This document shows, piece by piece, positions 2-15,162 of a stretch of 20,000 nt of DNA. Made by a program: the position numbers and the translations under genes. Each line of letters starts with the position of its first letter. Within the stretch, counting starts at the first letter, position 1. A model generated the notes under the pieces. That model saw nothing but the letters and a program-made list of their open reading frames with translations, had not been told where the DNA came from and did not search any database. Origin of the DNA: an uncultured virus (IMG/VR IMGVR_UViG_3300029288_000003). Lineage: Duplodnaviria > Heunggongvirae > Uroviricota > Caudoviricetes. The DNA lies in the IMG/VR virus record IMGVR_UViG_3300029288_000003; one strand, 5' to 3'.

Positions 2-370
2 TGGCACAATACGTTTTGCGAAGGCCCTAATTACAGCCCGCAAGAGCTACGGGATACCCATAATTTTACTACGTTCGAGCGCCGGCAATGCCGCTATCAG
101 TTTGTCAACCTGCGGGCATTTTGTGACCATAGCACGTATGAACTGCGTGGCTTTCAGGGGACACTTGACTACCGCGAAATTTGCAACTGGATTAAAGCCC
201 ATTTGCGTTTTGTCGAATTCGTAAAAGACACGCCGATGGCTGAACTTGATGCCATGTTTGGGCAGGGATTACGTAAAGCCAAACGGAGTTTGCGTAAGGT
301 ACTTGGCACTTCACTAAGCAACTACTATGCAAAACTCTGGCGTAAACATGCCCATAGGGTGGCCGTATGA
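2..370 (+). CDS. Putative amidoligase (COOH-NH2 ligase family), C-terminal part; 5' end outside the window
   Basis: Frame +2 is open from the window start to TGA 368-370. It reads ...RQCRYQFVNLRAFCDHSTYELRGFQGTLDYREICNWIKAHLRFV..., which aligns by eye with RRRYEWLNFVAYYEHRSIEVRLHHGSLNATEICNWIRGI in 5554..6963. Not in the ORF track. Confidence 0.75.
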   Translation, partial: WHNTFCEGPNYSPQELRDTHNFTTFERRQCRYQFVNLRAFCDHSTYELRGFQGTLDYREICNWIKAHLRFVEFVKDTPMAELDAMFGQGLRKAKRSLRKVLGTSLSNYYAKLWRKHAHRVAV

Positions 371-3692: not shown

Positions 3693-3883
3693 TGCACATC
3701 ATCGGATTCGTACCGCCTGAATGGCTTGATGCCATTGTCGAGTCAATGAACGCGGAATTTCCAGGGTGGTGTTTTTCAGGTGTAGACTTGGATACCATTG
3801 TAGCTGAGTATTTGCCCCATGATGCAATCATGCCCTTGATTGAAGCCTACCTTGACGGTGTAAATGATGCGTGGGAACTATGA
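3692..3883 (+). CDS. Small acidic hypothetical protein
   Basis: TAATG coupling; GAGG RBS. Confidence 0.7.
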   Translation: MHIIGFVPPEWLDAIVESMNAEFPGWCFSGVDLDTIVAEYLPHDAIMPLIEAYLDGVNDAWEL

Positions 3884-4062
3884 TGGAATATAAACACTGG
3901 CGAATTATGATCGGGCAACGCAAGGATGGTTGGTATTACCTTGTGGAGATATTGCCCAACAAAACATTCAAGGCCACTTATGGCCCGTTTGCCGGGCCAG
4001 AAAGTGCGGAGTATGACGCTAAGCAAGTGATTGATGTACTCGAAAAATACTTGGAGTGGTAG
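3880..4062 (+). CDS. Hypothetical protein
   Basis: ATGA-coupled; last ORF before the non-coding island. Confidence 0.7.
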   Translation: MMEYKHWRIMIGQRKDGWYYLVEILPNKTFKATYGPFAGPESAEYDAKQVIDVLEKYLEW

Positions 4063-4154
4063 CGCTTTAAGACGTGCCGGATTCATGGCCGGAAGGGTGC
4101 AAGTCCCAATAAGGTCTAGTAGACCAACCGGGTGCAAGGCCCGGCTATCATTCT

Positions 4155-4199
4155 AAAGCCCGCTATACCGGATGGCCGGTCACTGGCGGGTTTCCTTTT
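4155..4199 (+). terminator. Probable intrinsic terminator
   Basis: Stem AAGCCCGCTA/TGGCGGGTTT with inner ACCGG/CCGGT, followed by TTTCCTTTT. Confidence 0.55.
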
Positions 4200-4213
4200 A
4201 CCCAGGGGGTCTA

Positions 4214-4441
4214 ATTGTCGGGGTCGATTTTTGTTGAAAATAAACCCCAGAAATTTTAAGGCCCTATACGGCAGATTATCGGGGTCATATTCGATGTCCA
4301 ATTCGGACGTACAATTATCGGGGTCATGGATTAACTTATATTTTAGTTATATTTCTTGGACCCCGCTATTCCGAATTATCCGACGCTCTAACCCAGAAAT
4401 TAAAAAGGTTAATTGCTGATAAACTGTGACCCCGATAGTCG
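4214..4441. repeat. Cluster of ATT(G/A)TCGGGGTC motif copies
   Basis: Copies at 4214, 4274 and 4314 (+) and 4427-4441 (-). Confidence 0.8.
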
Positions 4442-4523
4442 CCTGTATGTTGCTGGCGTCACTAAGGGTTTATCCGATTCTAGCCGCACGGCAAGAATCC
4501 CTCACAGATTTTTACCGCTGGCC

Positions 4524-4551
4524 TTGACTTTGTTGCAAAACGTGGTATAGT
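4524..4551 (+). promoter_or_regulatory. sigma70-type promoter TTGACT-N16-TATAGT with extended -10 TG
   Basis: Near-consensus hexamers with the same spacing as the other promoters. Confidence 0.7.
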
Positions 4552-4556
4552 TAAGA

Positions 4557-4795
4557 TGTTGAGGGAAATTGTGCTACCGAAAACTTATAGGAGATACAGC
4601 CAACCGACTTTCAATTCCGTAACCGCTTAAAAGCTACTGCCCGCCTTGATACTGTAAGTATCTCTATGTCGGGATTCCCGGTACTCGCGGTAGAATAGCC
4701 GTATCATCGGCACTATAAGTCTTGGCAACGCAACCTCTTGCGGTAATCCTTGTTTCGGCCTCAATGCTTGTAGCTGGTTGTTGTTCCTCCCTTGC
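4557..4795 (+). ncRNA. Candidate structured ncRNA (about 240 nt)
   Basis: Lies between promoter 4524-4551 and terminator 4800-4838; no ORF in the track; nested complementary segments. Confidence 0.5.
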
Positions 4796-4799
4796 ACAC

Positions 4800-4838
4800 G
4801 GGCGGGTAGGTGTGTGGCCTATCCCGCCCATTCTTTTT
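4800..4838 (+). terminator. Intrinsic terminator
   Basis: GGGCGGGTAGG/CCTATCCCGCCC stem followed by ATTCTTTTT. Confidence 0.75.
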
Positions 4839-5038
4839 GTCCGATTAAGTCGATTGTCGGGGTCATGGATAACATAAAAATTTTTATGTTGCGCTTTTTT
4901 CGGCTCGCTAACCCCAGGTAAAATAAGAACTTACGACTTTTTGGATTCCAGCTTGGTGGAAATTTGAGGGTCGCAATGTAGGGGAAACCGGCACCCCTTG
5001 ACCGTTATAATTGATATAATCGGCCAAGTAGCGGTACA

Positions 5039-5074
5039 ATCGTTAAGATCGTTAAAACCGTTAGAACCGATAAG
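5039..5074. repeat. Four imperfect 9-bp tandem repeats
   Basis: ATCGTTAAG ATCGTTAAA ACCGTTAGA ACCGATAAG. Confidence 0.6.
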
Positions 5075-5099
5075 ATTATTATAAACGATCTAATCGGAA

Positions 5100-5241
5100 A
5101 CCCCACTGGGATCGGCACAAGAGTTGTGACCGATACAACCGGCAGAATTGCAACGTATTGACGTTGCAATCGGTAGAATCGCTACAATCGGTAGCATTTG
5201 ACGGTCTAACCGTCAAAATCGCACCATTCGCTATCCTAACA
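5100..5241 (-). ncRNA. Candidate multi-hairpin ncRNA (3' end uncertain)
   Basis: Downstream of the perfect minus-strand promoter; hairpins at 5111-5134, 5147-5170, 5181-5195 and 5197-5217. Confidence 0.45.
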
Positions 5242-5247
5242 CTATCT

Positions 5248-5275
5248 ATTATACCACGCCGTTGTGGTTTGTCAA
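5248..5275 (-). promoter_or_regulatory. sigma70-type promoter TTGACA-N16-TATAAT (minus strand)
   Basis: Reverse complement reads TTGACAaaccacaacggcgtggTATAAT, a perfect consensus with extended -10 TG. Confidence 0.8.
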
Positions 5276-5482
5276 CTACAATCCAGATAAACGGCCTTTT
5301 CTGGTTGGCGGGGTGATGCCAAGATTGTCGATTGTCGGGGTCATGGCATTTTACGCGCCTGCGCGTAATATAGTATAATGTCAAAATCTGCGCCGGAATA
5401 ATTGTAAAATGTGATAGATCGAAAAAATCTGTTGCAATCTGAAAAAATCTTTGCAGGTTTCCGAACTATCGGCCAATTTTGC

Positions 5483-5510
5483 TTGACACCCGCCGACGGC
5501 ATGGTAAGAT
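5483..5510 (+). promoter_or_regulatory. sigma70-type promoter TTGACA-N16-TAAGAT
   Basis: Upstream of the GGAGGG RBS and ATG 5554. Confidence 0.75.
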
Positions 5511-5553
5511 ACAATGTAAGTCTGATTTTCCCTATCTAACGGAGGGCTAGGCA

Positions 5554-6963
5554 ATGGCGATAGCTACGTCGAAAATCGAATTACCCAACCATACACAATG
5601 CCCGGATTGTCGGCAATGGTATGAGGGGGAAGGGGCAACGGCATACGGCAATGGTGACACCCGTACAGTATGCCCTAATTGTGCGGAATTGGCGGGATAT
5701 GTTGCTTGTGACGATTGCGGCAAGCTATTCCCCGAATTGCACGATTGCGACGGGGATAACTATTGCGACGATTGCGCCGATTCGCACGGGTTTAAGCAAT
5801 GTTCGCAATGTGACGAATGGATGGATTCTGACGATCTGGAAGAATATGACGATGAGTTGTATTGCCGGGAATGTGCCGATGCCGCCGATCTATACCATTG
5901 TGACGATTGCGGCAAGCTATTCCACACTGACGATTTAACCGATTGCGACGGTAACTACTATTGCGACCGTTGCAAGGATAACAATGGGTATACGGAATGT
6001 TACCATTGCCATGATACTATCCATCGGGACCATTGTAGCACGGGTGCCGATGATGAGGATTATTGCGAATCGTGCTGGTGTGACCATTTTTCGGTTTGTG
6101 AGGATTGTGGCACAACTATCTGGACTGACGATTGTGTCTATACTAGGGATGCTTGCTATTGTAGCGATTGTGCCCCTGGTGCCGAGAATTACGAACCGAA
6201 GCGTTTTGACGGTTCTAACAATACTTTCACAAAAATCGGTCAGCGCGCCTTTGGCGTAGAAATCGAGACTGACGAATGTGATGGTTATGAGGATTACGAC
6301 GGTCGGGGCGCCTTTGGCGCAAAACCCGATGCTTCCGTAAATGGCAAAGAGTTTTATTCTGACATTCTTTCCGGGGATAAGGGTCTTGCGGAAATTGAGC
6401 AGTTTTGCCGTTTTGCGGATCGTAACGGTTTTGCCGTTGATTCCAGTTGTGGGCTTCATGCCCATTTTGACATGCGGAACGAAAATAACGATAGCATGAA
6501 GTCTATCGCTTGTGCCATGCTTTCCACTTATGAGGTTTGGAAGGCTTTTGTCGATGAGGCAAGACACGACAATCATTACTGTCATGCTAGTTGTGCCAGT
6601 TTGGGCGAAGTTTACGGCGTTACCGATTTTAGGGATTGGGGCGGTCGTAGGCGTCGTTACGAATGGCTCAATTTTGTGGCCTATTACGAACATAGGAGTA
6701 TTGAGGTTCGGTTGCATCATGGCAGTCTTAACGCCACTGAGATATGTAACTGGATTAGGGGTATTTCCTTGTGGATGGATTGGGCCGCAAGTAAGGGTTG
6801 GAAGGAAGTAAGGGATTCTCTGATTTACAAGAGTTATGCCGAAAGATTCGCCCTTATGTGCAAGGTTTGGGAAAATGCCGGTTGTGCCGATCTTGTCGAT
6901 TGGTTCAAGGAACGGGTTGAAGCATCGGAAATCGAATGGGCCGAATTAGCCGAAGTAGCCTAA
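5554..6963 (+). CDS. Putative amidoligase (COOH-NH2 ligase type) with long N-terminal CxxC Zn-ribbon repeat region
   Basis: Motifs FGVEIE, D.S, EF.S..L, CGLHAH, RY..LN and IEVR.H.GSL typical of phage amidoligases; first ~205 aa are CxxC...YCxxC repeats. Confidence 0.85.
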   Translation: MAIATSKIELPNHTQCPDCRQWYEGEGATAYGNGDTRTVCPNCAELAGYVACDDCGKLFPELHDCDGDNYCDDCADSHGFKQCSQCDEWMDSDDLEEYDDELYCRECADAADLYHCDDCGKLFHTDDLTDCDGNYYCDRCKDNNGYTECYHCHDTIHRDHCSTGADDEDYCESCWCDHFSVCEDCGTTIWTDDCVYTRDACYCSDCAPGAENYEPKRFDGSNNTFTKIGQRAFGVEIETDECDGYEDYDGRGAFGAKPDASVNGKEFYSDILSGDKGLAEIEQFCRFADRNGFAVDSSCGLHAHFDMRNENNDSMKSIACAMLSTYEVWKAFVDEARHDNHYCHASCASLGEVYGVTDFRDWGGRRRRYEWLNFVAYYEHRSIEVRLHHGSLNATEICNWIRGISLWMDWAASKGWKEVRDSLIYKSYAERFALMCKVWENAGCADLVDWFKERVEASEIEWAELAEVA

Positions 6964-9267: not shown

Positions 9268-9546
9268 ATGGTTACAAGAGAAGGGGTTGCCGATAGTGTC
9301 GCGCGGGTGGTCAAGCTACTTGATAACCCCCGCCTTGCCCCTTGTCCCCGTAATTCGGTTGTGCGGGATGCAAGGGCTGCGCTGATTGCGCAGATTTTTT
9401 GGGGTGATAGGGTTCTTGCCGCCTATAGGGATGGTATCGACCCTATGCCCTTTGCCGACGAAATGGCGAAAGCCTATCATCGGGGTCATGCCGCGCTTGA
9501 CAAGTTTGTGGATTGTATCCGAAACAAGGATTGCAACGGGGTCTAA
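9268..9546 (+). CDS. Hypothetical protein, paralogue of 367..651
   Basis: Start reassigned to ATG 9268; ARAALIAQIFWGDRVLAAYRD. Confidence 0.78.
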   Translation: MVTREGVADSVARVVKLLDNPRLAPCPRNSVVRDARAALIAQIFWGDRVLAAYRDGIDPMPFADEMAKAYHRGHAALDKFVDCIRNKDCNGV

Positions 9547-12324: not shown

Positions 12325-12425
12325 AATAAATTTACCCAATCTATAATATGAGTGTAAATATAAAGCATACCAGCGGCTAGTACCATGATCCAAAAAAGAC
12401 AAATCAAATCATCTAATAGCTTCAT
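12312..12425 (-). CDS. Small membrane protein (37 aa)
   Basis: MKLLDDLICLFWIMVLAAGMLYIYTHIIDWVNLLWNI fills the gap in the gene train. Confidence 0.45.
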   Translation of the reverse strand: MKLLDDLICLFWIMVLAAGMLYIYTHIIDWVNLLWNI

Positions 12426-12852
12426 ATTCTATAATCTCCACTCGCTCTATCACATCACCTTGTTTAATAGCATTAACTACATTCATACCTTCAATAACCT
12501 GACCAAAAACACTATGTTTACCATTAAGCCAAGGACAGTTGCAGTGGCAGATGAAAAACTGGCTTGAAGACGTATTTGGTCCGCTATTCGCCATCGACAA
12601 ACAACCAGCAGTATGCAGGAGGCGAGGGTCAAATTCGTCTGGTATGAGGTAGCCCGCACTTCCGAACCCCGTTCCTAGCGGGCAGCCGGTTTGAATCATA
12701 AAATCAGCAATTACTCTATGAAATTTCAAGCCATCATAAAAGCCTGCGTTGACAAGATTCTTGAAATTTGCTACTGTATTAGGCACAAGTGGTGATAGTG
12801 CTGCTACTATAATCCCTCGATTTGTTGTAATAATTACTGTATCAAGCCCCAT
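12409..12852 (-). CDS. Cyclophilin-type peptidyl-prolyl cis-trans isomerase
   Basis: P.TV.NF, FYDG..FHRVI..FMIQ.G, LSMAN.GPNT.SSQFFI, WLNGKHSVFGQV.EG. Confidence 0.95.
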   Translation of the reverse strand: MGLDTVIITTNRGIIVAALSPLVPNTVANFKNLVNAGFYDGLKFHRVIADFMIQTGCPLGTGFGSAGYLIPDEFDPRLLHTAGCLSMANSGPNTSSSQFFICHCNCPWLNGKHSVFGQVIEGMNVVNAIKQGDVIERVEIIEYEAIR

Positions 12853-12998
12853 GAGCGTAAACACCTTTCCATATATTCAGGGAATCGTTGATCTTCGACT
12901 GTGGAATCATCAGGCAACAAGCCCGTGGCTAACCAATGAAGATACTGTTCATGTGTTAGCTTCCATCCAGCAAGCTGTTCGAGTTCATGTTTTGTCAT
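12834..12998 (-). CDS. Small hypothetical protein (54 aa)
   Basis: MTKHELEQLAGWKLTHEQYLHWLATG...; fills the gap in the gene train. Confidence 0.55.
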   Translation of the reverse strand: MTKHELEQLAGWKLTHEQYLHWLATGLLPDDSTVEDQRFPEYMERCLRSWGLIQ

Positions 12999-14325: not shown

Positions 14326-14495
14326 ACGTAATTCACTTTTAAAACTTCGAGGGCTGCCATTACATCATTAAAAGCCAATTGCGCTGACTCTTGAGCCGTG
14401 TTGGTATCCTCTATGGTCCCCTCAGTCGCGCCCTCAAGAATGTCGAACAAGTTATCGAGACGTTTTTGTACTTCTGTTTTTACGCGAACTAACAT
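14319..14495 (-). CDS. Small hypothetical protein (58 aa)
   Basis: MLVRVKTEVQKRLDNLFDILEG...; AGGAG RBS. Confidence 0.55.
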   Translation of the reverse strand: MLVRVKTEVQKRLDNLFDILEGATEGTIEDTNTAQESAQLAFNDVMAALEVLKVNYVC

Positions 14496-15162
14496 ATTTT
14501 ACTCCTAACCCTAGAAAATAAAGTAATGAGAGACAACCAGCCAGCCATAACATACTACATGGGTCTGGCGGGGTCAAAACTGCTGAGATAGCAACAATAG
14601 TAAAGATAGCCTGACGCCAGTATCCCGCCCAATTGATAGGTAAAACAAGCATGACTAATGGCAATTGAAATCCAATACCAAAACAAATTGGTAAAAGAAC
14701 CGCAAAATTCAGCCATGCTGACACTTGTGGCTGAATATCTACGCCTAAAGTTTTATTATACCCAAGTAGAAAGTTCAATATTGGCTCAAAAACTTGCAAA
14801 GCTACAATGTTACCCAATACAAACAAGCAAAGACTAGCAGGCAGCCAGCGAATAAGCCGTCGTTCATGCGGGTATAGCCCCTCTGCAATGAATTTCCAGA
14901 CTTGATAGAATATCCAAGGACTTGCAATTATTGTACCGAGGGTTAAAGCCGCCCGTAAATACAAATCAAATGCTTCTGTGACCGTAAAACTTGTTAAATG
15001 CGTAGAAAAGCCATTAGCAGACAGGGCTTTGACAAGTGGTTGCTGTAGTAATTTAACAACGGGCGTTGCAATAACACAACCGACAACAATTCCGACTACC
15101 CATCCCAAGAGGGAGAGGATCAATCGTCGTCGTAGCTCAATAAGATGGTCCCAGAATGTCAA
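14452..15162 (-). CDS. tatC: Twin-arginine translocase subunit TatC
   Basis: MTFWDHLIELRRRLI, EAF..Y, PWIFYQVWKFIAEGLYPHERR, FGIGFQLP, WR.AI and AVLTPPDP..M...A...LY; multiple TM segments. Confidence 0.93.
   Translation of the reverse strand: MTFWDHLIELRRRLILSLLGWVVGIVVGCVIATPVVKLLQQPLVKALSANGFSTHLTSFTVTEAFDLYLRAALTLGTIIASPWIFYQVWKFIAEGLYPHERRLIRWLPASLCLFVLGNIVALQVFEPILNFLLGYNKTLGVDIQPQVSAWLNFAVLLPICFGIGFQLPLVMLVLPINWAGYWRQAIFTIVAISAVLTPPDPCSMLWLAGCLSLLYFLGLGVKYVSSRKNRSTKTSR

Follow-up and report, generated by a model that had tools for sequence, protein, structure and literature searches.

6S RNA is built around a -35-like arm and a bubble whose 3' side is -10-like, and 6S-1 additionally carries a small 3' hairpin (PMC8876501). 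Ms1 of Actinobacteria is 230-300 nt long, contains a bubble as well as extra hairpins and associates with RNA polymerase; searches for 6S RNA miss it (PMC9130861). No phage-encoded 6S-like RNA was found in searches of the largely open-access literature. The 20,000-nt stretch of DNA analyzed here (the window), part of a large phage genome, very probably contains a stand-alone phage gene for a structured noncoding RNA (ncRNA) of about 280 nt that is transcribed from a host-type promoter, as judged by comparison with a related phage. Its predicted fold may partly resemble that of 6S RNA.

Genomic setting and transcription unit

The nearest record, G001 (105 kb), is identical to the window over positions 3800-5600 and places the ncRNA unit at ~93050. 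It encodes tRNAs, a tmRNA, Ro60, two RNA ligases, DNA polymerase A and several amidoligases; RlaP is likewise encoded by the phage. The host is probably a planctomycete, as suggested by the best genome match of the phage TatC (a Thermogutta assembly, 48%, one of four loci) and by the named relatives of the phage cyclophilin, which belong to Thermoguttaceae and Pirellulales but also to proteobacteria. The TatC and cyclophilin genes are located at window positions 14452-15162 and 12409-12864, both on the minus strand; it is unusual for a phage to carry a TatC gene. Cys-rich zinc-finger/amidoligase paralogues, at least four in number, are found at window 2-370 and 5554-6963 and at G001 83446-88861, with a glutamine amidotransferase nearby. 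The segment 11000-11840 of the window is AT-rich and almost devoid of ORFs, and gene orientation and GC skew switch there, marking it as a candidate replication origin or terminus. A divergent sigma-70-family-like protein hits TIGR02937 (E 9e-8, under the cut-off) and phrog_351 (E 4e-8), whereas region-2 Pfam profiles gave no match; weaker counterparts are found in related phages. This protein is probably the phage's own sigma factor. The features of the locus, together with this gene, are as follows.

4274-4440, no strand assigned: three upstream copies (4274, 4313, 4426) of a dispersed 15-nt phage repeat
4524-4551, plus strand: host-type sigma-70 promoter with -35, 16-nt spacer and extended -10; phage consensus; counterpart in the related record G003
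4558-4838, plus strand: predicted ncRNA, ~281 nt including the terminator; putative 5' end; ortholog found by a model built from the window only
4571-4630, plus strand: 19-codon ORF, GTG at 4571 to TAA at 4630; peptide not conserved
4800-4838, plus strand: intrinsic terminator; inner four pairs inverted in the ortholog
4852-4866, plus strand: downstream copy of the dispersed 15-nt phage repeat
G001 34431-35096 (L004:14431-15093): divergent sigma-70-family-like protein, 221 aa

A preliminary description had proposed a stand-alone ncRNA of about 240-280 nt between a strong promoter and a terminator. This is supported by the promoter, the ~240 nt without a conserved ORF, the terminator and a fold that is kept in an ortholog. 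The promoter (TTGACT-16-TATAGT with a TG) is real, its -10 hexamer and the preceding four bases each being the commonest among 34 such phage promoters (6 of 34 each). The 5' end of the transcript can be inferred to lie near 4558, 6 nt after the -10 box, since an ATG stands 6 nt past this box in 11 of the 34 promoters. The terminator is likewise genuine, with a 12-bp hairpin (4800-4829, -23.7 kcal/mol) followed by a T-rich tail, though it is absent from the listing of a simple terminator scanner. The small ORF was also found with the length described, about 19 codons, and is in frame with an ATG at 4556, just ahead of the putative transcription start. An internal promoter at 4691 is unlikely, as there is no -35 box and the neighboring helix covaries, and the 14-nt antisense match to 9519-9532 is no better than expected by chance (E 0.38).

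The 15-nt repeat is present in 11 copies in the window (4274, 4313, 4426, 4852, 5330, 7024, 7063, 9475, 10548, 10927 and 10986) versus 0.10 expected. The copies lie in both orientations around promoters and terminators, and the repeat is present in the relative G002 too; it is possibly a protein-binding or recombination site.

Other ORF-free units are found in this phage group. One runs on the minus strand from window position 5275 to ~4900, converging on the ncRNA, with a perfect consensus promoter (12/12) and a hairpin chain (z -4.4) partly built of 9-nt repeats; its counterparts in G002 and G003 differ in sequence and have the same dispersed motif at the end. Another promoter unit (L006:17190-17492, minus strand, equal to G001 77492-77190; ortholog L036:1270-1540) has a strong ribosome-binding-like sequence, no start codon and two long arms, is well conserved in G003 (score 205 versus 61 shuffled) and is itself a candidate ncRNA. 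A promoter-terminator unit just after the tmRNA (L007:2734-3020, equal to G001 82734-83020) is predicted to form a rod (z -1.45); no ortholog of it was found.

Predicted fold and its conservation

Three related records were reached via the DNA polymerase. In one of them, G003, an ortholog lies in a syntenic position upstream of the corresponding amidoligase gene (protein identity 58%) and has both a promoter and a terminator. The ortholog body is 68% identical (152 of 223 aligned bases) and better conserved than the flanks (score 152 versus 104 and 92; shuffles 51-65), and a model built from the window alone recovers it with 42.9 bits (E 3.7e-11). The RNA has two known members, those of the window and G003. 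No third member was found by blastn against phages and plasmids, by DNA patterns in genome contigs, in eight further related or neighboring viral records (all fragments), in 455 kb of phage loci, or in genomes of the presumed host order (121) and family (40). In viral contigs, none of 25 pattern loci besides the known ortholog scored with the model, and five loci with the terminator pattern were all unrelated. A metagenome scan with the neighboring protein returned the contig of the known ortholog, a contig nearly identical to G002 and a short one that lacks the region.

The predicted conserved fold is a rod consisting of a 70-nt arm and a bubble, with a -10-like hexamer at their junction. Its elements are listed below.

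4570-4574, plus strand: 5' strand of helix P1, pairing with 4794-4798; 9 bp in the ortholog; one double-sided change
4589-4597, plus strand: 5' strand of helix P2, pairing with 4743-4750
4599-4610, plus strand: 5' strand of P3, the helix closing the bubble, pairing with 4717-4726; two double-sided changes
4611-4621, plus strand: unpaired 5' side of the bubble, 11 nt (also 11 in the ortholog); short local pairs possible
4622-4691, plus strand: irregular 70-nt arm, formed in independent minimum-energy folds of both orthologs
4691-4696, plus strand: TAGAAT, a -10-like hexamer conserved where arm and bubble meet; its T is paired and the other bases are mostly open
4698-4711, plus strand: hairpin P5 on the 3' side of the bubble; one double-sided change
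4729-4742, plus strand: hairpin P6 between P3 and P2; two double-sided changes, the alignment being fitted here
4775-4781, plus strand: conserved segment rich in G and U; in a second conformer it can pair with 4596-4602 in place of P2/P3

The arm is composed of 4622-4626 paired with 4687-4691, an A-rich internal loop, 4635-4643 paired with 4670-4673 and 4679-4683, and an apical hairpin (4648-4662), and its span of 70 nt is exactly the same in both phages even though indels occur within it. TAGAAT, identical in both orthologs, begins with the final base of the arm and continues for five bases beyond it; in unconstrained ensembles the unpaired probability (window, ortholog) is 0.09 and 0.07 for the T and 0.31-0.77 and 0.78-0.96 for the following five bases. 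The 3' side of the bubble has six open bases and then P5. Helix P1 has a low probability in the window fold (0.1) and a probability of 0.95-0.99 in the ortholog. The two conformers, P2/P3 and 4596-4602/4775-4781, are within 1 kcal/mol of each other in both orthologs. A Y-RNA-like bulged helix near the 5' end is not conserved.

The preliminary description had drawn the RNA with five nested long-range helices and two local hairpins. As written, the strands of all five pairings are complementary, but C4577 is used by two of them, and imposing the set is 13.7 kcal/mol less favorable than the optimum (-47.1 versus -60.8). Only 4577/4753 has an appreciable pair probability (0.3-0.46); the other four are unsupported, with ~0.01 for 4561/4784, 0.04 for 4573/4770 and 0.00 for both 4583/4713 and 4591/4658, the last two being rejected. 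The local hairpins 4698-4711 (p ~0.87) and 4729-4742 (0.55-0.89) hold and are conserved in the ortholog.

Selection on the fold was assessed by folding each sequence separately and comparing pair probabilities through a sequence-only alignment, with random substitution at the same sites as the null. The overlap was 18.7, compared with 7.6 ± 2.8 (0 of 300) and 6.5 ± 4.3 (5 of 300) for two nulls; three other gap settings gave 0, 4, 0, 1, 0 and 0 of 110 nulls. A blind count of kept single pairs was weaker and alignment-dependent (p 0.046, 0.002, 0.21 and 0.21). In the fitted alignment, 10 of 56 pairs carry changes in both partners and pairing is lost in 2 of 104 cells; the structure was chosen with both sequences known and the alignment was fitted to it, so that the former count leans towards the fold, and the shuffle of the pair count does not amount to a probability. 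The inner four pairs of the terminator are inverted between the window and the ortholog. The folding-energy test suggested in the preliminary description gave an unremarkable result, the body being no better than shuffles (z -0.04); z is -1.34 with the terminator, -1.7 for the core 4589-4750 and -3.05 for the ortholog core. The comparison with homologues, also suggested there, was favorable within its two members: the ortholog retains the base pairs and loses the peptide, the opposite of a locus conserved for its coding sequence.

Possible promoter mimicry and competing explanations

By analogy, the ncRNA may tentatively be regarded as working like 6S RNA, as a decoy for the host housekeeping RNA polymerase, without belonging to the 6S family. 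The 70-nt arm would take the role of upstream promoter DNA and the hexamer at 4691-4696 that of the -10 element, located at the melting fork; strand 4611-4621 (11 nt) would play the template, and P3/P2 would represent downstream DNA. The RNA would thus bind host RNA polymerase containing the housekeeping sigma factor, damping host and early phage transcription, and this capture could favor the phage's own sigma-like factor, which provides a motive for such a decoy. The second conformer might be a release or off state. A rather doubtful extension is that an RNA of phage origin, sharing no sequence ancestry with 6S, arrived at open-promoter mimicry by convergence and sequesters the housekeeping RNA polymerase of the host such that the phage sigma factor takes over. 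Of the roles named in the preliminary description (decoy, antitoxin mimic or scaffold), the decoy agrees with this best guess, and the other two are rivals without positive evidence.

A paired first T with the rest of the -10 element open corresponds to the -12/-11 fork of open promoters, and the probability, calculated post hoc, that a hexamer of this kind falls at any of 10 helix ends is ~0.04. The first unpaired base is an A and the fifth a U, matching A131 and U135 of Escherichia coli 6S RNA, and A131 is invariant across 30 aligned 6S RNAs. However, these bases are not diagnostic, since E. coli 6S mutants at A131/U135 bind normally (PMC8876501) and the 6S RNAs of the host family mostly lack the A at the A131-like position. 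Promoter mimicry is also disfavored by the frequency of -10-like hexamers (one or two in each of seven units folded), by the reliance of the phage on the host polymerase for many of its own promoters, and by the short 5' bubble strand, the extra hairpin and the bistable closing region.

The fold could instead serve as a structured decoy or ligand for another host or phage protein, such as an antiphage nuclease, a toxin or the Ro60/RNA-repair machinery, with the conserved loops as binding sites. This explanation is possible, if somewhat doubtful: the phage invests heavily in RNA (tRNAs, tmRNA, Ro60, two RNA ligases and RlaP), unpaired motifs are conserved in the internal and apical loops of the arm, and four further ORF-free units in these phages also have an apical loop containing UGUA, but no partner was identified, the Y-RNA motif is absent and the unit is ~20 kb from the Ro60 gene. 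It would gain if the different, ORF-poor unit that the complete relative G002 has in the same syntenic place were a distant homolog, as the hexamer would then be dispensable. By eye, this unit has a 73-nt arm, whose A-rich loop is the same and whose apical loop is similar, followed by a hairpin; no hexamer was found at its arm junction, and it gave no significant score with the window model. Homology of units B and C and of the G002 unit to this RNA is not significant. A bistable switch or scaffold, oligomerizing or ligand-sensing, with a function beyond the known classes is unlikely. The two mutually exclusive closing conformers are near-equal in energy in both orthologs, P2/P3 covary and the alternative helix is conserved in sequence; yet the energy difference is inside prediction error, the alternative helix has no double-sided change and there is no downstream gene to control.

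An element acting at the DNA level or in replication is improbable to a similar degree. The transcript would then form an R-loop or serve as a primer between the repeats on either side; alternatively, the locus would be an emptied promoter-terminator cassette with an incidental fold. The dispersed repeat on both flanks, the convergent second ORF-free unit, the G/U-rich 3' part, the resemblance of the 5' 60 nt to the leader of another cassette (E 0.03) and the near-zero z of the body are consistent with this, while the compensatory changes, the constant arm length and the better conservation of the body than of the flanks argue against it, as does the switch of strand and skew near 11-12 kb, away from the unit. 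It is very improbable that the transcript is an mRNA for a very small peptide with surrounding regulatory structure. The GTG occupies the same place and frame relative to a shared R-Y-S in both orthologs, with an indel of 6 nt between them in the sequence-only alignment; against this, the ortholog peptide has 11 codons rather than 19, those three residues are the only ones shared, the ribosome-binding site is weakened and the GTG lies within helix P1.

If promoter mimicry is the true function, the phage would use an RNA, not a protein, to redirect host RNA polymerase, and this RNA would take the place of protein anti-sigma factors and appropriators. The ncRNA may also be one of a set of at least four ORF-free structured RNA cassettes in this phage group, and it adds an uncatalogued structured RNA from barely studied large phages of probable planctomycete hosts.

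Comparison with known RNA families

A search of the unit against Rfam, including RF00013, gave no match in any family, in line with the failure of the preliminary description to recognize one. A 6S model was constructed from the 30 best of 65 6S matches in 150 Planctomycetota genomes, with one duplicate dropped and E. coli added (29 Planctomycetota sequences plus E. coli); its consensus structure is poor (22 pairs). This model did not match the unit or the ortholog and scores E. coli 6S RNA at 89.4 bits. 6S profile searches of the unit were empty, and its alignment scores with 10 host-family 6S RNAs equal those of shuffles. On sequence and profile comparison, the phage RNA is not a 6S family member by any model. 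The A-rich 5' loop of the arm is also seen by eye in 7 of the 10 host-family 6S RNAs; complementarity of the G/U-rich tail to a conserved stretch of these RNAs (9 nt in the ortholog but 6 nt in the window, by eye) was dropped. With the same 6S model, 30 of 40 genomes of the presumed host family Thermoguttaceae proved to contain a 6S-like RNA of 205-233 nt whose arm is branched. For Thermogutta terrifontis, a species outside this count, PMC5673643 reports no 6S RNA.

Y RNAs (YrlA/YrlB) occur with Ro60, which this phage encodes, and a pairing that resembles one with a bulged C lies close to the 5' end of the window RNA. However, the Y-RNA motif GNCGAAN0-1G (as defined in PMC4201824) is absent near the 5' end in both orthologs, and the Ro60 gene (G001 71602-73206) is not within 4 kb of the unit. 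Directly upstream of Ro60 are three tandem ~60-nt repeats with the Y-RNA Ro60-binding motif (G001 71377-71600, L006:11377-11600), undetected by Rfam at the gathering score; similar sequences are also present in G002 and G003.

CsrB/RsmZ-type sponges have many GGA motifs in their loops. A CsrA sponge was rejected, the two orthologs having only three and two GGA motifs, which are not conserved. A tmRNA was also rejected, as no tRNA-like ends or tag frame match and the phage tmRNA is elsewhere; neither ARAGORN nor Rfam matched a tRNA-like domain in the unit. The retron/DGR reverse transcriptase profile PF00078 gave no hit in three records, one of them complete. GOLLD, ROOL, OLE and raiA are, like the phage RNA, stand-alone structured RNA genes near tRNA-rich phage regions, and none has an Rfam match with it. 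The viral candidate RNAs described in PMC10690425 are 29-151 nt long and were required to have at least three members, whereas the phage RNA is longer and has two; no trace of the ortholog was found in the six searchable supplementary files of that paper.

Ms1 is similar in size, bubble and extra hairpins, but belongs to another host phylum, has no Rfam match with the phage RNA and binds core enzyme, a behavior not expected of an RNA with a -10-like hexamer. Compared with 6S RNA, the phage RNA is longer (280 versus ~185-230 nt), is phage-encoded with its own terminator hairpin, and has a shorter 5' bubble strand (11 versus ~16 nt in E. coli), the extra hairpin P6 and a bistable closing stem. 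The 6S signature (C-A-C at the junction with conserved downstream and closing helices) is missing, and only its A is shared. In its predicted fold, the phage RNA may share with 6S RNA a rod with an apical arm of ~70 nt (72 in E. coli), a central bubble and a closing stem; both have an A and a U at the -11- and -7-like positions of the 3' bubble strand, and the small 3'-bubble hairpin of Bacillus subtilis 6S-1 (PMC8876501) resembles hairpin P5 of the phage RNA.
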